Positions 14,076-55,253 of a DNA stretch of 64,000 nt are shown here, piece after piece; position 1 is the first letter of the stretch; each line of letters starts with the position of its first letter. The stretch is taken from assembly GCF_056712565.1 (NCBI RefSeq), contig NZ_CM160072.1; one strand, given 5' to 3'. The notes under the pieces are model-generated. The model was not told the DNA's origin. It did no database searches and saw only the letters and a list, made by a program, of their open reading frames with translations. Made by a program: the position numbers and the translations under genes.

Positions 14076-14096
14076 TTTAACAATCTGGATGACTTA

Positions 14097-14609
14097 TTAC
14101 TCAGATTTGAACTTTGGTTCTGGCAAAAGAGGAGGAGTTGAGTCCTCGAATCGTAGCCAGTGCTCCCAGATATCGTGGGATTGTAATTCCAGAAGACCAA
14201 TTTGACGTGATGCAACTGCAGTGCCAGCTATAGTTCCTCCTGCATAATCAACCTGGACGGACTTTGACGCTTTCTCAATTAATTCTGTCCAAGCTTCACT
14301 TTCCGCGTTAAAAGAAGCAGTTAATTCCTGCAGACGCTGTGGATCATCCTTGTTGTCTTGTTTCAAACGATTCAGGGCGGCCACCGAATACTTATTCTTA
14401 ACCCAACTAACCTGAGCTAACTGAACTCTCTGACAAGCGTCCATATCAGTAGTTGTTTCCTGAGGCATATCAAAGCAGGAAATAAAAAAAGTCTCAACAC
14501 CATCATTTAGACTACTGCTCGGCTGGTTCAAAGCATCAGAAGCATTGGATGCTATCGGTATTATCAGTGCTACCGACAGAATCAAACGTTTAACATAAAT
14601 CGCTCCCAT
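14097..14609 (-). CDS. Secreted/periplasmic protein with cleavable signal peptide (possible DUF1311/LprI-like)
   Basis: N-terminal KRLILSVALIIPIASNA-SD looks like a Sec signal peptide with an AxA-type site; two cysteines in the mature part; low GC; convergent with the repressor gene. Confidence 0.45.
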   Translation of the reverse strand: MGAIYVKRLILSVALIIPIASNASDALNQPSSSLNDGVETFFISCFDMPQETTTDMDACQRVQLAQVSWVKNKYSVAALNRLKQDNKDDPQRLQELTASFNAESEAWTELIEKASKSVQVDYAGGTIAGTAVASRQIGLLELQSHDIWEHWLRFEDSTPPLLPEPKFKSE

Positions 14610-14896
14610 TTAATTATCCCCTCTAAGAACAGAGTCATCCAGATTAGCCGAATCCTTGTTGTTGGGGAATAACCAGGCCCACCTCGCCTGATGTGGCTAA
14701 AAGCAGGCACATAACAGCTAAGTATTTTCAACCAGAGAGAATCCTTAGCGTTGTGGTGAATGCGGCTCAGCGCACGCGGGTTAAGGTTGAGGCTGACAGT
14801 CGACCTTCTGTGGATACCCACCCGCCTGGTGTGCAACCTTCGCCAGGCACCGGGAGGCACCCGGCACCACAACTTTATGCTGTGTGTAGTCCTGGC

Positions 14897-14940
14897 GGTA
14901 CCAGCTTGTACCCTTGCTTCCGGCTGGTACCGCTCTTTTT
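14897..14940 (+). terminator. Terminator-like hairpin in the noncoding region upstream of the yfdP-like gene
   Basis: Perfect 9-bp stem GGTACCAGC / GCTGGTACC (14897..14905 and 14923..14931) followed by CTCTTTTT; the stem also carries GTAC motifs like the immunity-region operators. Confidence 0.4.
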
Positions 14941-15077
14941 ACAAAACAGAGAAGAGCATCACCGGACGACGGGCTCATAACCCAATCCACCCGGGCGGCT
15001 GCCACCGCAGGTGTTCTTCTCTGTTTTGTGGAGAAACCAACCGACCTTGCAGGGTCGATATGATGAGGAGCAGCAAA

Positions 15078-15440
15078 ATGGCTAGCGAACGCAGTACCAA
15101 CGTGCAGGAATTTATCGGGGAGCTGGACGGCGGCGTATTTGAAACCAAAATCGGCGCAGTTCTCAGTGAAGTCGCTTCCGGTGTGATGAACACGAAAACC
15201 AAAGGTAAGGTCTCGCTCAACCTGGAAATCGAACCGTTTGATGAGAACCGTGTGAAAATAAAACACAAACTCTCATATGTTCGTCCGACTAACCGCGGGA
15301 AAATTTCCGAAGAAGACACCACCGAAACGCCGATGTATGTCAATCGCGGTGGTCGCCTGACTATTCTGCAGGAAGACCAGGGACAATTACTGACTCTTGC
15401 CGGTGAACCTGACGGAAAACTCCGCGCAGCAGGTCATTAA
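15078..15440 (+). CDS. YfdP-like prophage protein
   Basis: ~120 aa starting MASERSTNVQEF..., with GAGGAG RBS 7 nt upstream; directly precedes YfdQ- and YfdR-like genes as in the E. coli CPS-53 prophage. The longer ORF from 14760 is an unlikely extension. Confidence 0.5.
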   Translation: MASERSTNVQEFIGELDGGVFETKIGAVLSEVASGVMNTKTKGKVSLNLEIEPFDENRVKIKHKLSYVRPTNRGKISEEDTTETPMYVNRGGRLTILQEDQGQLLTLAGEPDGKLRAAGH

Positions 15441-15505
15441 TATCGTTCTTAATTAACTGATTATTTATCTCATCACTGAATATCTTTATATAGTGAGGAC
15501 TTATT

Positions 15506-16330
15506 ATGTCTCAGAACTTAGACGCAACCGCAATTAATCAAATCCATGCCCTTATTTCTGCTCAGGGTGTTAATGAAATTATCAGTAAGATTGGTGCCGA
15601 CGCAGTGGCATTACCTGAAAATTTCCGCATTCATGATCTGGAAAAATTTAATTTAAATCGCTTCCGTTTCCGTGGTGCGCTTTCCACTGCCAGCATCGAT
15701 GACTTTACCCGTTATTCTAAAGATCTTGCGGATGAAGGCACCCGCTGCTTTATCGATGCCGATAATATGCGTGCCGTCAGTGTGCTTAACCTGGGTACTA
15801 TTGATGAGCCTGGTCACGCAGATAACACCGCCACTCTCAAACTGAAAAAGACAGCACCGTTCTCTGCTCTGTTGTCTGTTAACGGCGAGCGTAACTCCCA
15901 GAAGTCACTGGCAGAATGGATTGAAGACTGGGCCGACTACCTTGTGGGCTTTGATGCTAATGGTGATGCCATTCAGGCAACAAAAGCGGCTGCGGCAGTC
16001 CGTAAAATCACGATTGAAGCAAACCAGACCGCTGATTTTGAAGACAATGACTTCAGCGGCAAACGCTCCCTGATGGAGTCTGTCGAAGCGAAGACCAAAG
16101 ATATTATGCCAGTGGCATTTGAATTTAAATGCGTTCCGTTTGAAGGCCTGAAAGAACGTCCGTTTAAATTACGCCTCAGCATTATCACTGGCGATCGTCC
16201 TGTACTGGTTCTGCGCATTATTCAGCTGGAAGCAGTGCAGGAAGAAATGGCTAACGAATTTCGTGATCTGCTTGTTGAGAAATTCAAGGACAGCAAAGTA
16301 GAAACCTTTATTGGTACTTTTACCGCCTGA
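15506..16330 (+). CDS. YfdQ-like protein (DUF2303)
   Basis: 274 aa, same length and gene neighbourhood as E. coli YfdQ. Confidence 0.65.
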
Positions 16331-16457
16331 TTTCATTACTGCAAATGCCCCTGCGGGGGCATTTATGGAAACGTAATTGACTCAATAATCGCCGGATGGT
16401 GAGGGCTTTCTTTTACCAGAATTCAGCGCGGTGCAGCGCATATACGTGGAGAACAAA

Positions 16458-16982
16458 ATGTCATTTATTAAAACTTTTTCCGGGAAGCATTTTTATTATG
16501 ACAGGATAAATAAAGACGACATCGTTATTAACGATATCGCGGTTTCTCTTTCAAATATCTGTCGCTTTGCAGGACATCTTTCACATTTCTACAGCGTCGC
16601 CCAACATGCGGTGCTTTGCAGCCAACTGGTACCGCAGGAATTTGCTTTTGAAGCGTTAATGCATGATGCAACAGAAGCGTATTGCCAGGACATCCCGGCG
16701 CCACTGAAACGCCTTCTTCCTGACTATAAACGGATGGAAGAAAAAATAGACGCCGTAATCCGTGAGAAATACGGGTTACCCCCGGTTATGAGTACGCCCG
16801 TGAAATATGCCGATCTCATCATGCTGGCAACCGAACGCCGCGATCTCGGGCTTGATGATGGCTCTTTCTGGCCCGTACTGGAAGGTATCCCGGCAACAGA
16901 GATGTTCAAAGTTATTCCACTGTCGCCAGGCCATACCTATGGGATGTTTATGGAACGCTTTAAAGAGTTAACTGAGTCGTAA
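16458..16982 (+). CDS. HD-domain 5'-deoxynucleotidase, YfdR-like
   Basis: HD motif (ALMHDATEAYCQDIP) and histidine-containing N-terminal region; start MSFIKTFSGKHFYYDR preceded by GGAG. Confidence 0.7.
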   Translation: MSFIKTFSGKHFYYDRINKDDIVINDIAVSLSNICRFAGHLSHFYSVAQHAVLCSQLVPQEFAFEALMHDATEAYCQDIPAPLKRLLPDYKRMEEKIDAVIREKYGLPPVMSTPVKYADLIMLATERRDLGLDDGSFWPVLEGIPATEMFKVIPLSPGHTYGMFMERFKELTES

Positions 16983-17090
16983 AAATCAGCACGTACGAAT
17001 TCAAACTCTGCCATAAAAGAACATATAAGTAATTTATTAACATATAGATATAGGTTATATTACAAATTGAAAAATTATTGGAGAGCAACA

Positions 17091-17957
17091 ATGAATCAAA
17101 ATCCATTCTCATTCTATGACTTTCTTGGATATTTAATACCAGGTGGTTTTTTTATCCTATTAATGTATTTCTGTGGTTTGACATTCGATCTAGATATTGT
17201 TATTGACTTAAGTGAATTGCTCAGAGGTCAAAGTCAAATCTTTGGCATTTTGAACTACGCTTCAATAGTTATTATATCTTATATAGCTGGACATTTTATT
17301 TCTATCACGTCAGCATTTTTTATCGAAAAATACATGAATAAAGAATTAGGATATCCTTCCAAATATCTATTTAAAAAATTGATAGATACCTCAGAAAGCA
17401 TTTGTAGCCCATCATGCGATGAGAGAAGCGCTGATAAAAAAACAAAAATAAAGAATCGCATAATCAAATGCGTATTATGTCCAATAATACTATGGGATTT
17501 TATAACACAAAAACTATGTTATTCTCAATCTCTACCATTTCATTTAGCTAATACAACATGGTTAATGATCAAAGAAGGTTATGAGAAAAAGTTCATAACA
17601 AATCGCCAATTATTACAAGATAAAAACGGACTTGATGATGATCTCTTCAGATTGGCATATCATTATGTTTATGAGTTTTCAAAACAACATCAAACAAAAA
17701 TTCAAAACTATGTTGCATTATATGGTTTTTGCAGAAACATATGTTTAATCTTTATAATTTCATTTTGGGTATCAGTTCCAACCTTTATTTATCGATTATG
17801 TACTCATAGTGATTATCTTTATAGTTTACTTTCAATAATGCTTAGCTTTTTCTTCGTCTATGTTTTCTATGTTGGTTTTGTTAAATTTTATAGAAGATAT
17901 ACTTTAGAAGTATTAATGGCATTTGCTGTACTTCAAAGTAACGACACTATTCGTTAA
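17091..17957 (+). CDS. Integral membrane protein, very low GC (candidate exclusion/abortive-infection moron)
   Basis: ~288 aa from ATG 17091 (RBS GGAGAG); two predicted TM helices at each end with a ~130-aa soluble central region; strongly AT-rich codon usage. Confidence 0.5.
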   Translation: MNQNPFSFYDFLGYLIPGGFFILLMYFCGLTFDLDIVIDLSELLRGQSQIFGILNYASIVIISYIAGHFISITSAFFIEKYMNKELGYPSKYLFKKLIDTSESICSPSCDERSADKKTKIKNRIIKCVLCPIILWDFITQKLCYSQSLPFHLANTTWLMIKEGYEKKFITNRQLLQDKNGLDDDLFRLAYHYVYEFSKQHQTKIQNYVALYGFCRNICLIFIISFWVSVPTFIYRLCTHSDYLYSLLSIMLSFFFVYVFYVGFVKFYRRYTLEVLMAFAVLQSNDTIR

Positions 17958-17998
17958 TAATGTTGCTCCCGTGTGCAGACGGGATAATGGAGAAACGT

Positions 17999-18205
17999 AT
18001 GCTGAACCTCGATTGTGTTCCTATCTCAACTTATTGCAAAGAAACTGGCGAAACTCCTGAAGCAATAAACAAACGTGTACAGCGCGGTGTTTGGCGTGAA
18101 GGTGTTCAGGTTTTAAAGGTTGAAGGCGTTAAGGAGAGGTGGATTGATCTTAGTGAGGTTGCAAAATGGGCCAGACAAAACTGCTCAAACTACCGCGCGG
18201 CGTAA
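17999..18205 (+). CDS. Excisionase-like protein
   Basis: Small basic protein directly upstream of and overlapping the integrase gene; GGAG RBS 8 nt before ATG 17999 (alternative start 17987). Confidence 0.55.
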   Translation: MLNLDCVPISTYCKETGETPEAINKRVQRGVWREGVQVLKVEGVKERWIDLSEVAKWARQNCSNYRAA

Positions 18206-19338
18206 CAATCAGGAAACACCACCAGGGAGAAACGATCAATATAACTTTCACCTACAAAGGAGTTAGATGTCGTGAGCCGCTTTCCAATCTGGAAGTAACA
18301 CCAAAGAACATTAAATACGCCGAGCGTACACTCGGCGAAATCCATAATAAGATCGAAAGGGGAACATTCATTTATGCAGAATATTTTCCCCGTTCTGCTC
18401 GTTTGAAAATTTTTGGTAATGCTGCTGCAAGCAAAACGGTAAAGATGTACCTGGACGAATATCTTGAAATCTGCGAAACAAGAAAACTTTCACCCTCTAC
18501 GATTGGTGGCTATAAAAAATGCCGTAGTGCGTTAGCCTCACTTCACATTTGCCCTGCAAGTGAATTAACACCAGCAACCCTGAAAGCGTGGATTCAAAGC
18601 CAGAAAACAACCTTAAAAACCATTCGCAACCAGTTATCTTTCCTACGGTCAGCACTTGATGAAGCCGTGACCGATGGGGTACTTCAAATTAACCCCGTAT
18701 CGTTAGTAACAGCTTCGCGCTACCAAAGTGATAAGTCAGAAGCAGAAAGCAGCTATGTGGTTGATCCGCTATCACCAGCAGAAGTTGATGCATTACTAGC
18801 AGCAGCCGGAAACAAACAATGGGAAAATCTGTTCCGGTTCGCCATACATACAGGCCTGCGTAGTTCTGAATTATGTGCCCTACGATGGCATGATATCGAC
18901 TTTGTTGGAAAAACAGCCCATGTTCAGAGCGCAAGTGTTGTCGGAGTTATCAAAGGAACAAAGACAAAAGCCGGTACCCGTAAAGTTGAACTGACTGAAG
19001 AAGCAATGTTGGCGTTGATAAACCAGAAGCCATTTACATTCATGAAGGATGCTACTGTCTTTGAAGATCCAAAGACCAATAAACCCTGGGCAAGTGCTGA
19101 TGCAATTAGGAAAAAAGCATGGGTGCCAACATTGCGAAAAGCAGGTATTCGTTACAGAAACCCATATCAAACCAGGCATACATTCGCCACCAGCCATATC
19201 AGCCGGGGAGCAAACCTGTTTTGGCTTGCGGCTCAAATGGGCCATAAAGGGCCTGAAATGTTATTCAGGCACTATGGACAATACTTGAAAGAGTATGATG
19301 GGAGGGCAAGTATCAAGGATAAAAAGGCTTTATTTTAA
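18166..19338 (+). CDS. Tyrosine integrase (phage integrase family)
   Basis: 390 aa with catalytic-domain signatures (LRSSELCALRWHDID; HTFATSHISRGANLFWLAAQMGHKGPEMLFRHYGQY), reading toward the att remnant. Confidence 0.9.
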   Translation: MGQTKLLKLPRGVTIRKHHQGETINITFTYKGVRCREPLSNLEVTPKNIKYAERTLGEIHNKIERGTFIYAEYFPRSARLKIFGNAAASKTVKMYLDEYLEICETRKLSPSTIGGYKKCRSALASLHICPASELTPATLKAWIQSQKTTLKTIRNQLSFLRSALDEAVTDGVLQINPVSLVTASRYQSDKSEAESSYVVDPLSPAEVDALLAAAGNKQWENLFRFAIHTGLRSSELCALRWHDIDFVGKTAHVQSASVVGVIKGTKTKAGTRKVELTEEAMLALINQKPFTFMKDATVFEDPKTNKPWASADAIRKKAWVPTLRKAGIRYRNPYQTRHTFATSHISRGANLFWLAAQMGHKGPEMLFRHYGQYLKEYDGRASIKDKKALF

Positions 19339-19947
19339 GTCATTATGCCAATCGTCTACTGTTTGAAACCAAATTTTTAACCTTTGCATAAAGGTACGAT
19401 CCTTTTTGGGAGGGTGGTACCTTTGAAAAGAAGTATGTAACGCTTCGATAACTCCCATACAAGCATCAATTACTTCTTGTGCTTTAACCGGGCGATCGGC
19501 ATCTGAAAGCTTGTGAGCGACCTCACAATCCAGAGTTGCTTTCTCTAGTACAGATGAGAACACCTCGTCAGGTATATACAGTCCTCTGCTTTCCAAAATG
19601 CAAATCAGTTTGGAAACTTGTTGAGCTTTAGCCAAGATAGTTAACAAGTATGAAACAGAAGCCTTTGTTCTATCCTTTTGCAACCTTAACAATCGATGCT
19701 TTGATGCTCTAATTTTAGGTTGAGTTGTCTGACTGAGCCAATAGTTAGAAGAAATATCAGAAATTTCAATAACTAACTTTGAAATAGCATCAATAATTGA
19801 TTTCGATTCAGAACGTGTCGCCAGTTTTACAGAATTATTGTACGCAACTCGCCATCCAATGAAAACTAAGCAGACGCTAACTACTGTGATACACCACGAA
19901 TACTGTCCTATTTGTGCTACTAATGACATTGGTTCCGTACTGATCAA
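19330..19947 (-). CDS. Membrane-anchored protein, third gene of the integrase-proximal cassette
   Basis: 205 aa; single N-terminal TM helix (YSWCITVVSVCLVFIGW) then a ~170-aa soluble domain with no recognisable motif; 3' end overlaps the integrase 3' end; 10-bp gap to the upstream gene. Confidence 0.5.
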   Translation of the reverse strand: MISTEPMSLVAQIGQYSWCITVVSVCLVFIGWRVAYNNSVKLATRSESKSIIDAISKLVIEISDISSNYWLSQTTQPKIRASKHRLLRLQKDRTKASVSYLLTILAKAQQVSKLICILESRGLYIPDEVFSSVLEKATLDCEVAHKLSDADRPVKAQEVIDACMGVIEALHTSFQRYHPPKKDRTFMQRLKIWFQTVDDWHNDLK

Positions 19948-19957
19948 CTATCGCCTC

Positions 19958-20284
19958 TTATACTCTTTCTGGTTGTGCTAAATCAATAAATTTATCAATC
20001 TGTTCTTTGTAGAACGGAACATCACTTTTTATAATCAAACGTGCTTTAACGTTGGCTTTAGGTATCCCTTCCTTACGGATGAGACCTCCAAACGCCTCTT
20101 CTAAGAAAGAGGAACCAACACCCAGTGCTATACCGCGAAAATCAACCACAATCTCCTGTTCAGTACCCTTCAGCGCAGGCACCAAAAACTCTCTACGAAA
20201 TCTTTCCGCACTGTGTGGGCTATCCGTTGTGTAACGTCCGAAAGGTGTTCTGGAGAACTCCTTCGCTATGACGATATTTCTCAT
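19958..20284 (-). CDS. Small STAS-like protein (DUF4325-like), second gene of cassette
   Basis: 108 aa; segment EIVVDFRGIALGVGSSFLEEAFGGL resembles the STAS-like DUF4325 proteins that I recall pairing with GHKL ATPases; 4-bp gap to the upstream ATPase gene. Confidence 0.45.
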   Translation of the reverse strand: MRNIVIAKEFSRTPFGRYTTDSPHSAERFRREFLVPALKGTEQEIVVDFRGIALGVGSSFLEEAFGGLIRKEGIPKANVKARLIIKSDVPFYKEQIDKFIDLAQPERV

Positions 20285-20288
20285 AAAA

Positions 20289-21200
20289 TCATCTCCTGGG
20301 AACCAGCGACCATTGTAGTAAAGTACCCGGTATGTACTCAGCTAGCTTCTCACATCGAGGACTACTGTCATTAGAATTATAGCTATAACGAGCCCTTCCT
20401 ATTAGTATCAGAAGTGTCTCATTATCCTCACAACCTGCCCCAATAGGTCTCTTGATATCTTCAGAGCCATTTCCCCGTCCGGAACCAACAAAGCGGGATT
20501 CCCCTACTAACATAGCTCTTTCCACAGAAGATACTTCGTTTTGAATGCTATGACCATCACCATTAGGCACGAAACTTCTATAAATCCCCAATCCAAGGTC
20601 ACAAACGATAAAAACGACTTTATTTTCATCACGATTGAACCAAGCGCACTGCCACCATCGTTTACCTTTGAGAAGCTGAATATCTGACTCGAACCCCTCA
20701 TCTTCATACGCATGATGAGAAACATTGAGCAAAGCTTCACTAATCGCTGTCAGCAGTAAGCCTAACTGTTCATTATTAAGCAGAGCACTTTTCTGCAGCA
20801 TGAGTACTGTTTCAACAATATGCTCGTAAGGTTCGACAGCTGACTGAAAGTATCGTTCCTCCCTCGTAAGTGCATTCAGTTTCTCTTCTGTGCCAGCAAG
20901 CAAAGCACGAGCAAGTCCAGTACCAACGATCCATCTATGCCCAGATGGGTTATCATCCTTTTTAGGCCATTTAAAACGTATAAAATTAGGGTCCCGGGTT
21001 AAAAATTGAGCTCTATTTACTATGGCAAAGAACAGTACCGATGCCGCAGCTGAGGCAAATTTTACCTTGGACAAATCAACTATAACTCGACCTTTATTTT
21101 TTACTCCAATCGATTCAATCGAGTTGATGAAGTTCAATGTCCCAGCCCTAGAATCATCTGAGTAAATGCAAAATTTGCTTGGGGGTACCAGTATGGTCAT
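20289..21200 (-). CDS. GHKL (Bergerat-fold, histidine-kinase-like) ATPase, first gene of cassette
   Basis: 303 aa; N-box-like EALLNVSHHAY, G1 box VCDLGLGI (DxGxG), G2-like GSGRGNG; ~130-aa N-terminal extension of unknown fold; AT-rich promoter-like region upstream (21201..21340). Confidence 0.6.
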   Translation of the reverse strand: MTILVPPSKFCIYSDDSRAGTLNFINSIESIGVKNKGRVIVDLSKVKFASAAASVLFFAIVNRAQFLTRDPNFIRFKWPKKDDNPSGHRWIVGTGLARALLAGTEEKLNALTREERYFQSAVEPYEHIVETVLMLQKSALLNNEQLGLLLTAISEALLNVSHHAYEDEGFESDIQLLKGKRWWQCAWFNRDENKVVFIVCDLGLGIYRSFVPNGDGHSIQNEVSSVERAMLVGESRFVGSGRGNGSEDIKRPIGAGCEDNETLLILIGRARYSYNSNDSSPRCEKLAEYIPGTLLQWSLVPRR

Positions 21201-43077: not shown

Positions 43078-43160
43078 TTCGGGCGGATAAGGCGTTTTTG
43101 CCTCATCCGCCGCTCTGTACACAATGCCTGATGCGACGCTGGCGCGTCTTATCATACCTA
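43078..43160. repeat. REP element downstream of proX
   Basis: GCCTGATGCGACGCTGGCGCGTCTTATCA-type imperfect palindrome. Confidence 0.5.
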
Positions 43161-43262
43161 CAAACCACACCGCACATTTCAACAATCTATCTTTCATCCC
43201 ATATTCATCAACATCCGCTATTATTGATTTCCAGCTTAATCATCACCTGATGAACAAAAATA

Positions 43263-44447
43263 ATGACTAAACCTAATCATGAGCTTAGCCCGGCGCTGAT
43301 CGTGCTGATGTCTATCGCCACCGGTCTGGCGGTAGCCAGTAACTATTACGCCCAGCCATTGCTCGACACCATCGCGCGTAACTTTTCCCTTTCCGCCAGT
43401 TCGGCAGGCTTTATTGTTACCGCCGCGCAGTTGGGCTATGCCGCAGGTCTGCTGTTTCTTGTTCCCCTCGGTGATATGTTTGAACGCCGCCGCCTGATTG
43501 TCTCGATGACCTTACTGGCAGCAGGCGGCATGTTAATCACTGCCAGCAGTCAGTCGCTGGCGATGATGATCCTCGGTACAGCATTAACCGGTTTATTTTC
43601 AGTCGTGGCACAAATTCTGGTTCCACTGGCAGCGACGCTGGCTTCACCGGACAAACGCGGCAAAGTGGTTGGCACCATTATGAGCGGTCTGCTATTGGGG
43701 ATCTTACTCGCACGGACCGTTGCCGGATTGCTGGCGAATCTCGGCGGCTGGCGCACCGTCTTTTGGGTTGCTTCGATGTTAATGGCACTGATGGCGCTGG
43801 CATTATGGCGTGGTCTGCCACAAATGAAATCAGAAACCCACCTCAACTACCCACAGTTGTTGGGTTCCGTTTTCAGCATGTTTATCAGCAATAAGATCCT
43901 GCGCACCCGCGCGTTGCTGGGCTGCCTGACCTTTGCCAACTTCAGCATTCTCTGGACCTCAATGGCCTTTTTGCTTGCCGCTCCACCTTTTAACTACAGC
44001 GATGGTGTAATTGGTCTGTTTGGGCTTGCGGGAGCTGCCGGAGCGTTGGGCGCTCGTCCGGCGGGCGGTTTTGCCGATAAGGGCAAATCGCACCACACCA
44101 CAACTTTCGGTCTGCTGCTGCTGTTACTTTCATGGCTGGCAATCTGGTTTGGTCACACTTCCGTACTGGCGCTGATTATCGGCATCCTGGTGCTGGACCT
44201 CACCGTGCAGGGCGTGCATATCACTAACCAGACGGTAATTTATCGAATACACCCTGATGCGCGTAATCGCCTGACCGCAGGTTACATGACCAGCTACTTT
44301 ATTGGCGGTGCCGCTGGTTCGCTAATTTCAGCCTCAGCCTGGCAACATGGCGGTTGGGCTGGCGTGTGTCTGGCTGGCGCGACGATTGCCCTGGTTAACT
44401 TACTGGTCTGGTGGCGAGGTTTTCATCGTCAGGAAGCCGCAAATTAA
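43263..44447 (+). CDS. ygaY: MFS transporter YgaY (intact here)
   Basis: 394 aa with about 12 TM segments; I recall this locus as a pseudogene in K-12. Confidence 0.8.
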   Translation: MTKPNHELSPALIVLMSIATGLAVASNYYAQPLLDTIARNFSLSASSAGFIVTAAQLGYAAGLLFLVPLGDMFERRRLIVSMTLLAAGGMLITASSQSLAMMILGTALTGLFSVVAQILVPLAATLASPDKRGKVVGTIMSGLLLGILLARTVAGLLANLGGWRTVFWVASMLMALMALALWRGLPQMKSETHLNYPQLLGSVFSMFISNKILRTRALLGCLTFANFSILWTSMAFLLAAPPFNYSDGVIGLFGLAGAAGALGARPAGGFADKGKSHHTTTFGLLLLLLSWLAIWFGHTSVLALIIGILVLDLTVQGVHITNQTVIYRIHPDARNRLTAGYMTSYFIGGAAGSLISASAWQHGGWAGVCLAGATIALVNLLVWWRGFHRQEAAN

Positions 44448-44570
44448 GCAATCAGCAACCGTTTTCGTGGCTTTACACTTATAAGGGTGTTAAGAAGCCC
44501 ATCAGTCTGATAAGGTTAAGATATTCATTCAGTCTATTTATAATATTAACAATCGTTAAGCGTACACTCT

Positions 44571-49108: not shown

Positions 49109-49365
49109 GGTTGTCAAAGGGAGCTGCGGCTCCCTTTTTATTTGCTCATACTGTAAACGGTTGTTTAATCCACTCATTCGGTGTATCTTTTCGCCGCCCC
49201 AAACTCTTCCATTCACCATTAACCGGTTCTGAGCATTCGCTCAGGTTGTTAATTCTCTTTTTCCTTCGCCCTCGCTTTCGCGGGTGATACTCACATTTTT
49301 CTTTTAACCCCATAACTCGCACCCTCGCGGGCGTACATTTATTACACACAAAATAATGGATTATT

Positions 49366-50073
49366 ATGAATACCCAACGGAAATACGGGAGAACCTGGCA
49401 TTATCCTTTCTCCCCTGGCACCACCAGCGATGACCGCATTAACGCCGATTACTGGCAGGATTTACAGGCCATCACGCAACTGGTGCACACAGAAAAACTC
49501 GACGGCGAAAATAACTGCCTTAACCGCTACGGCGTGTTTGCCCGTTCCCATGCTGCGCCTACGCAGTCGGCATGGACTTATAAAATTCGCCAGCGTTGGC
49601 AACTGCTGAAAAACGATCTCGGCGATCTGGAACTGTTTGGTGAAAATCTCTACGCCGTTCATTCCATTGAATACCGCGCGCTGGAACAGGACTTTTACCT
49701 GTTTGCCGTTCGCTGCCAGGATATGTGGCTGAGCTGGGAAGAGGTGCAGTTTTACGCCGCTCTGTTTGATTTCCCCTGCGTTCCCGAAATCTCCGGCCCG
49801 CAGCCGGGGAATGATGAAAAAAGCTGGCAACGTGATTTTCTGGCGCTGACCAATGCGCGCGGCACATTCGATCCCTGGGATACGCAAACCTGTCAACCCT
49901 GTACGCTGGAAGGCATTGTCAGCCGAAATCATGATGCGTTTTCTGTCGCTGACTTTTCGCATAACGTCTTCAAGTATGTGCGCAAAAATCATGTCAAAAC
50001 CACTGTGCACTGGAAACGCCACTGGCAACGGGCGCGGATGGCCCATGAGTTCGTTTATGGAGAACAGTCATGA
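49366..50073 (+). CDS. Putative ATP-dependent RNA ligase-like nucleotidyltransferase
   Basis: 235 aa with a covalent nucleotidyltransferase motif-I-like sequence ([10 protein letters not shown], KxDGxN); overlaps the next gene by 4 bp (ATGA); not in the K-12 emrB-luxS interval as I recall it. Confidence 0.55.
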
Positions 50074-51182
50074 TTTGGCAACTTACCGACGATAAACGCT
50101 GGTCGGCGCTACGTCAGCGTTTTAGCTGGGTTGAGGAGATGCATCACACGCCACAAGACCCTGAGCATCATGGTGAAGGCGACGTCGGCGTACATACCGA
50201 AATGGTGCTTAACGCCCTCATTACTCTGCCAGAATTCCAGCAACTCCCCGCTCAACAGCAGGAAGTTTTATGGGCGGCGGCGTTATTGCATGATGTTGAA
50301 AAGCGCAGCACTACCGTGCAGGAAAACGGACGTATTCAGTCTCCTGGTCATGCTCGTCGGGGCGAACTGACGGCCCGACAAATTTTATGGCGCGATATCC
50401 CAACGCCGTTCGTGCTGCGCGAGCAAATTGTTGCACTGGTGCGTCTGCATGGGTTACCGCTATGGTTACTGGAACGCCCGGAACCGGAGCGTTTGTTGCT
50501 CACGGCTGCAATGCGCATCGACACGCGTCTGCTCGCTTTGCTTGCTCGTGCCGATCTGCTTGGTCGCCAAAGCCCGGATCAGCAATCAATGCTGGAACGC
50601 ATCGATCTGTTCGAGCTGTTTTGCCATGAGCAACAATGCTGGGGAAAAATGCGCCCGTTCGTTTCTGATTCCGCACGCTGGCATTACCTGACCCATGAGC
50701 AAAGTTCTCCTGATTTTGTTCCCTGGGAGGCTGAACCTTTTGAGGTCATTTTGCTGTGTGGCTTACCGGGTATGGGCAAAGATCGCTATATCAATGAACA
50801 GTGCCAGGGAATGGACGTTATCAGCCTTGATGATATGCGGCGGCGAATCAATGCCAGTCCGGACGACAAAACCGCTACCGGGCGTATTGTGCAACAGGCA
50901 AAAGAAGAGGCGCGCGTTTTTTTACGCCAGAAAAAGCCGTTCATCTGGAATGCAACGAACATTACCCGCCAGCTACGCAGCCAGCTCATCAGTCTGTTTA
51001 CGGCTTACGGCGCACGAGTAAAAATCGTTTATCTGGAAGTGCCATGGGCGCAATGGAAGCAGCAAAATGCCAGACGCGAGTATGCAGTTCCTGAAGCGGT
51101 CATGATGCGGATGGCCTCAAGGCTGGAAGTTCCTCAACTTGATGAAGCACATAGCGTGGAATATCGGATGACTGACAGGTAA
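50070..51182 (+). CDS. HD-domain phosphohydrolase fused to a P-loop kinase-like domain
   Basis: 370 aa; N-terminal H...HD signature ([21 protein letters not shown]) and C-terminal Walker-A-like GLPGMGKD (lysine followed by D rather than S/T). Confidence 0.55.
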
Positions 51183-51816: not shown

Positions 51817-51889
51817 GAAAGACGCGCATTTGTTATCATCATCCCTGAATTCAGAGATGAAATTTTGGCCACTCACGAGTGGCCTTTTT
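51817..51889 (+). ncRNA. micA: Small regulatory RNA MicA (SraD)
   Basis: GAAAGACGCGCATTTGTTATCATCATCCCTGAATTCAGAGATGAAATTTTGGCCACTCACGAGTGGCCTTTTT matches the MicA sequence I recall, including the terminator hairpin; lies between luxS and gshA. Confidence 0.85.
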
Positions 51890-54799: not shown

Positions 54800-54876
54800 T
54801 GGTGCATCCGGGAGGATTCGAACCTCCGACCGCTCGGTTCGTAGCCGAGTACTCTATCCAGCTGAGCTACGGATGC
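54800..54876 (-). tRNA. tRNA-Arg (anticodon ACG)
   Basis: 77-nt reverse complement gives GCATCCGTAGCTCAGCTGGATAGAGTACTCGGCTACGAACCGAGCGGTCGGAGGTTCGAATCCTCCCGGATGCACCA. Confidence 0.9.
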
Positions 54877-54939
54877 ATCGGGAAAATTTATTTTACTACT
54901 GATATTGATATCGCTACTAAAGCCATATCAAGTAAGAGA

Positions 54940-55016
54940 TGGTGCATCCGGGAGGATTCGAACCTCCGACCGCTCGGTTCGTAGCCGAGTACTCTATCCA
55001 GCTGAGCTACGGATGC
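54940..55016 (-). tRNA. tRNA-Arg (anticodon ACG)
   Basis: Identical 77-nt copy. Confidence 0.9.
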
Positions 55017-55080
55017 ATCGGGAAACTTACTTTACTGCAGATTTTTTGATACCGCCACTAAAGCCGTATCAAGTAAGAGA

Positions 55081-55157
55081 TGGTGCATCCGGGAGGATTC
55101 GAACCTCCGACCGCTCGGTTCGTAGCCGAGTACTCTATCCAGCTGAGCTACGGATGC
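55081..55157 (-). tRNA. tRNA-Arg (anticodon ACG)
   Basis: Identical 77-nt copy. Confidence 0.9.
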
Positions 55158-55160
55158 AAA

Positions 55161-55253
55161 TGGCGGTGAGGCGGGGATTCGAACCCCGGATGCAGCTTTT
55201 GACCGCATACTCCCTTAGCAGGGGAGCGCCTTCAGCCTCTCGGCCACCTCACC
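55161..55253 (-). tRNA. serV: tRNA-Ser (anticodon GCU)
   Basis: 93-nt reverse complement gives GGTGAGGTGGCCGAGAGGCTGAAGGCGCTCCCCTGCTAAGGGAGTATGCGGTCAAAAGCTGCATCCGGGGTTCGAATCCCCGCCTCACCGCCA, with the long variable arm of a class II tRNA. Confidence 0.9.

Follow-up and report, generated by a model that had tools for sequence, protein, structure and literature searches.

The analysed window, a stretch of 64,000 nucleotides on contig NZ_CM160072.1 (assembly GCF_056712565.1), displays the gene order proW-proX-[ORF]-ygaZ-ygaH-emrR (mprA), as found around ygaY (b2681) in Escherichia coli MG1655, with the central ORF starting at ATG and encoding 394 residues followed by a TAA stop (Table 1). A 1.5-kb query around this ORF shows 100% identity to the type strain of the species, DSM 30083 = ATCC 11775, whose RefSeq record annotates an intact "MFS transporter" (WP_000165690.1; EAS44_RS06600) with the same start and stop, no difference in sequence or coordinates being observed between the two; in addition, the public protein collection contains the exact protein, with at least 1000 contigs encoding it. 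The uninterrupted 394-residue frame proposed by an earlier, sequence-only reading of the region is thus borne out by both the ORF listing and the identical ATCC 11775 annotation, and a hand calculation places the chance of a 394-codon open frame, (61/64)^394, at roughly 6e-9. The shared synteny and the ~97% nucleotide identity to the K-12 gene (33 substitutions in 1178 aligned bases) support the name ygaY, and the position between proX and ygaZ, together with high identity over the full gene length, assigns the ORF to the ygaY ortholog group. The GC content of the gene is core-like, about 0.50-0.60 in 200-bp windows, with no compositional sign of horizontal transfer at that resolution. An Rfam scan returned no RNA family within ygaY, and one REP-type element upstream. 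A 98-residue antisense ORF with a TTG start, located opposite ygaY at 43550..43846, is treated as a chance frame facing a conserved coding gene.

Table 1. Features of the ygaY region and of other parts of the window, with the evidence for each assignment.
Feature	Position	Strand	Evidence
REP/BIME-type repeated element, proX-ygaY spacer	43081..43158	+	Rfam naRNA4/CssrE RF02564, 61.6 bits (gathering score 59.5)
ygaY CDS, 12-TM MFS transporter	43263..44447	+	ORF listing, ATCC 11775 annotation, Pfam MFS_1, hydropathy
Motif-A-like cytoplasmic loop TM2-TM3, P68-L-G-D71-M-F-E-R75-R-R-L78, just upstream of the K-12 break	43464..43496	+	Translation, YnfM alignment
Site of the K-12 lesion, imperfect 7-bp tandem GGCAGCA GGCGGCA, Ala86-Ala87-Gly88-Gly89, TM3	43517..43530	+	Alignment, haplotype comparison
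Sigma-70 promoter of the ygaZH operon, TTAAGA-17-TATAAT, 3' bound of the ygaY unit	44516..44544	+	Consensus scan
MicA sRNA	51817-51888	+	Rfam scan, 83.9 bits
Four tRNA matches, within the tRNA-Ser/tRNA-Arg cluster downstream of csrA	54803-55253	-	Rfam scan

The ygaY gene is flanked by two elements. On the 5' side, the REP/BIME-type element comprises a 12-nt hairpin with arms at 43082-43093 and 43100-43111. The 1.5-kb query matches a median of 6 places per genome, and the single listed repeat-only match (H40), covering window positions 43124-43162, falls within this element, to which the multi-copy matches are attributed. On the 3' side, the TTAAGA and TATAAT hexamers correspond to the listed constitutive RpoD promoter of ygaZH (PMC3946193). 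Farther upstream, the region by glaH at about 14095-21198 encodes a site-specific integrase together with a STAS-like-domain protein that lies between hypotheticals; it also contains yfdP/Q/R-like prophage genes and a hypothetical gene with a frameshift, and looks like a prophage remnant or an integrative island. Downstream, the interval between emrB and luxS, two genes adjacent in K-12, encodes on the plus strand at about 49365-51181 an 'RNA ligase family protein' (WP_001097119.1) and an 'ATP-binding protein' (WP_000638132.1), according to the ATCC 11775 annotation; this gene pair may represent a small accessory insertion, possibly of defence type. In the cluster downstream of csrA, the RefSeq annotation comprises five tRNA genes, four of them for tRNA-Arg and a single one for tRNA-Ser.

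YgaY belongs to the major facilitator superfamily, matching the Pfam MFS_1 profile (PF07690) in two stretches with 138.3 bits, compared to a cut-off of 33.4 (E = 3.8e-40). A Kyte-Doolittle scan reveals 11 segments at or above 1.35, which a charged loop at about residues 185-218 divides into an N-terminal set of six and a C-terminal set of five, and a twelfth, weaker hydrophobic stretch at about 337-358, an arrangement that agrees with the twelve-helix, 6+6 architecture with a central loop, the count being derived from simple hydropathy and not from a dedicated topology predictor. In MFS transporters the loop connecting TM2 and TM3 carries motif A, G-x-x-x-D-R/K-x-G-R-R/K. The corresponding YgaY loop, PLGDMFERRRL, aligns D71 and R75-R76 with the D and R-K of YnfM (GPLSDAIGRKPV), but has Glu at the position preceding the basic residues, where Gly is usual. 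YnfM from K-12 shares 25% identity with YgaY over 409 columns (BLASTP, E = 1e-19), with an end-to-end alignment (residues 1-390 of YgaY and 20-414 of YnfM) and a common 12-TM MFS architecture, a homology consistent with the placement of YgaY (P76628) in TCDB as 2.A.1.36.3, within the YnfM family and with function 'Unknown' (PMC5417439). Nevertheless, ynfM is accompanied by a divergent LysR-type neighbour, ynfL, whereas ygaY has no such neighbour in the window, and since the identity reaches only 25%, YgaY is, as judged by sequence comparison, a distant paralog of YnfM and not its ortholog.

The comparison with characterized transporters points to the fold. The NCBIfam collection returned 23 partial MFS matches, none of them near its curated cut-off and with no equivalog model reaching its own, the longest alignments corresponding to efflux models of the sugar-efflux (SET), Cmx/CmrA and Bcr/CflA types; residues 11-390 align with PRK03545, a 'sugar transporter' model of SET type, and the NCBIfam scores fall far under the curated cut-offs (63.6 versus 401). 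A PDB sequence search disclosed only remote MFS matches, including (i) GlcP (4lds), (ii) Qdr2, and (iii) the sugar efflux transporter SotB (6kki), which aligns with residues 13-383, the E-values for solved transporters ranging only from 1.6e-7 to 9e-4, as is typical of the weak similarity due to a shared MFS fold. Given these remote PDB matches and the low NCBIfam scores, no substrate can be transferred to YgaY. By analogy with its family, YgaY is most likely a proton-coupled secondary transporter operating by alternating access, which would probably export a small molecule. On the chromosome, the gene has the proVWX osmoprotectant importer on one side and the ygaZH valine exporter on the other.

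In K-12, the same position between proX (b2679) and ygaZ (b2682) is occupied in MG1655 by ygaY (b2681; UniProt P76628; TCDB 2.A.1.36.3) as a pseudogene of 1178 bp, and PGAP annotates the copy of K-12 C3026 as "MFS transporter, frameshifted", so that the disrupted K-12 locus put forward by the sequence-only reading is confirmed. The pairwise comparison which that reading had suggested, carried out as a global alignment of the 1185-bp ORF with the MG1655 gene, shows beside the substitutions a single gap of 7 bases in K-12, placed at window positions 43517-43523, the exact position being ambiguous owing to a tandem repeat; the identical intact ORF that would have overturned the claim is not present in K-12. 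The K-12 reading frame ends as ...MTLLAAC*, with a stop after 88 residues and the rest of the protein in another frame. Because the break is located inside TM3 (residues 78-96), the N-terminal product would comprise only about 2.5 helices. Frameshift aside, the conceptual K-12 protein differs from that of the window in only three residues (G88C, M172V, and N210D). In contrast to K-12, the window copy preserves both repeat units and all 394 codons, and a 35-mer spanning the K-12 junction is absent from the window.

At the K-12 junction, which corresponds to window positions 43514-43535, the ATG of the original Met90 overlaps the premature TGA stop (ATGTTGA, read as GC ATG TTG A). Re-initiation at this codon could, as far as the sequence indicates, yield a 305-residue C-terminal fragment, the old "ygaY" ORF, and the overlap fits the older split annotation into ygaX and ygaY, which appears as "ygaXY" in older lists (PMC3946193).

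The comparison of haplotypes at the lesion site distinguishes four arrangements: (i) the window and ATCC 11775 carry CTG GCA GCA GGC GGC ATG, an imperfect tandem of GGCAGCA and GGCGGCA, and are intact; (ii) BL21(DE3) and O103:H2 carry CT GGCGGCA GGCGGCA TG, a perfect 7-bp tandem, and are intact; (iii) ESY003 and PCN061 carry CTG GCGGCAT GCGGCAT G, a perfect 7-bp tandem that encodes Gly88Cys, and are intact; and (iv) K-12 carries CTG GCGGCAT G, with one copy only, and is frameshifted. The flanking SNPs of K-12 are common to ESY003 and PCN061 (TTGATTACC), so the K-12 state derives from a perfect tandem of two units by the loss of one of them, a pattern typical of replication slippage. When the unit is re-inserted, K-12 ygaY differs from that of ESY003 at 1 synonymous site in 1185 bp, so the loss is very recent.

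These observations suggest a short history of the K-12 allele. A G-to-T change in a phylogroup-A-type haplotype, giving rise to Gly88Cys, created the perfect tandem GCGGCAT GCGGCAT, and K-12 then lost one GCGGCAT copy, most likely by replication slippage. The copy loss causes a frameshift midway through TM3, ending translation after 88 residues. The window, which comes from the type strain ATCC 11775 and has GGCAGCA GGCGGCA at this site, never carried the lesion. As a minor point, the loss of one unit from a tandem made by the Gly88Cys change dates the inactivation of ygaY to the immediate ancestry of K-12.

The distribution of the alleles among 5,426 complete genomes was examined by using queries for the deletion on the K-12 haplotype (a junction 38-mer) and on the BL21-type haplotype that have no 28-mer in common with any intact allele, together with a query for the precursor allele. 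The junction 38-mer matches 353 of the 5,426 genomes. All 60 carriers inspected by name are K-12 laboratory strains, their derivatives or O16:H48, including MG1655, BW25113, C600, J53, TG1, JM109, MC4100, S17-1, EPI300, and O16:H48 mouse-colonisation isolates. A K-12 ygaY that is truly intact and merely miscalled, through an error of sequencing or annotation, is refuted by the recurrence of the same junction in 353 genomes of K-12 derivatives, each assembled independently; the split into two ORFs, 'ygaXY', in older annotation mirrors the same break. No observation was found in favour of such an artefact, and its probability is negligible.

The intact precursor allele with two GCGGCAT copies is found in 790 genomes, with an exact match in 718, and with hosts and sources comprising humans, poultry, pork, cats, fish, and pigeons, and the 35-mer of the window at this site is found in 451 genomes. 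Of the 5426 genomes, 5413 match at least 80% of the 1.5-kb ygaY query at a single place. The ortholog from E. fergusonii is intact, with 394 residues, 97% identity and Gly88-Gly89 at the site. Taken together, the E. fergusonii ortholog and the distribution among genomes support the intact gene as ancestral, Cys88 as derived and the frameshift as private to K-12. The intact gene is therefore the normal state of E. coli and K-12 is the exception, which qualifies the sequence-only description of ygaY as 'intact in this strain': intactness holds, but it is the norm of the species and not a peculiarity of the strain. The YgaY protein from Shigella dysenteriae, a member of the same 90% cluster, comprises 389 residues, with an in-frame deletion of five residues (LSWLA) at about residues 289-293, in a TM segment, and possibly represents another lineage-specific degradation of the gene.

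The repeat structure raises the question of whether the 7-bp tandem acts as a contingency locus, switching ygaY on and off through slipped-strand mispairing. Perfect two-copy tandems do occur at one and the same place on two haplotypes (GGCGGCA x2 and GCGGCAT x2), with one lineage in the one-copy, out-of-frame state. However, the tract comprises two copies only, a length at which slippage is expected to be rare, and in the window it is imperfect (GGCAGCA GGCGGCA). Moreover, instead of the recurrent copy-number change among natural isolates that characterizes contingency loci, the one-copy state is confined to the K-12 haplotype (the 353 genomes, with all 60 of those sampled being K-12 derivatives), and a query for the corresponding loss in the BL21-type haplotype gave 0 matches among the complete genomes. 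The K-12-only junction and the missing BL21-type counterpart largely refute such a phase-variation switch, which is left with a very slight probability, and favour a private loss in K-12.

A further question is whether an open frame implies a gene in use. The intact ORF might instead be silent, a decaying, H-NS-silenced gene whose lesion is still to come in this strain. In K-12, the ygaY region shows H-NS binding, with a weak H-NS ChIP peak and low transcription (PMC10656529; bioRxiv 10.64898/2026.02.10.705075), and ygaY DNA anchors an H-NS bridge to the downstream regulatory element of proU (PMC10656529; bioRxiv 10.64898/2026.02.10.705075). A consensus scan of the proX-ygaY spacer disclosed no consensus sigma-70 promoter and no promoter-like site upstream of the ygaY start. 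The loss of ygaY in K-12 is accompanied by no reported phenotype; the Keio ygaY deletion has served as a neutral control, being that of a pseudogene (bioRxiv 10.1101/072470), and the locus is chosen for chromosomal integration as a neutral site (PMC11731478). On the other hand, comparison of ygaY between E. coli lineages by the Nei-Gojobori method gives dS values up to 0.11 and dN values of 0.002-0.004, the resulting dN/dS of 0.02-0.035 indicating, at the level of sequence, strong purifying selection. This constraint, visible across lineages at a dS of about 0.11, is at odds with decay, as are the full-length, 97% identical E. fergusonii protein, the near-universal presence of the locus in the genomes searched and the confinement of the sole frameshift allele found to K-12. 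A silent, decaying gene is thus improbable, and the intact ORF in E. fergusonii, together with the low dN/dS, supports intact ygaY as the ancestral and selected state.

Overall, we are highly confident that ygaY of the window is an intact, ancestral core-genome gene encoding a twelve-helix MFS transporter and that the K-12 pseudogene reflects a private, recent lesion due to the loss of one 7-bp copy. That the gene is intact here and a pseudogene in K-12 is already known and ordinary, being annotated in this genome and in thousands more; the K-12 copy has been called cryptic, with in-frame stops (PMC10656529). The only small addition made here comprises the exact mechanism, loss of a repeat unit, and its confinement to K-12.

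Transcription of ygaY in K-12 increases upon osmotic shock, with read-through from proVWX as the probable source (PMC10656529; bioRxiv 10.64898/2026.02.10.705075). Direct evidence for expression of, or transport by, the intact protein was not found in the literature searched. It is conceivable, if rather unlikely, that intact YgaY functions in the transport of a specific physiological substrate, rising together with proVWX after osmotic shock, K-12 then being its natural null.

The K-12 lineage is a natural ygaY null, and consequently the missing ygaY phenotypes in K-12 resources, including the Keio collection, Tn-seq and use of the locus as an integration site, are uninformative about wild E. 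coli. Functional work on ygaY has to start from an intact allele, as carried for example by ATCC 11775, BL21 and O157, or from a K-12 strain in which GCGGCAT has been put back. If YgaY does work as a transporter, K-12, the reference for nearly all E. coli physiology, would have hidden an overlooked function.
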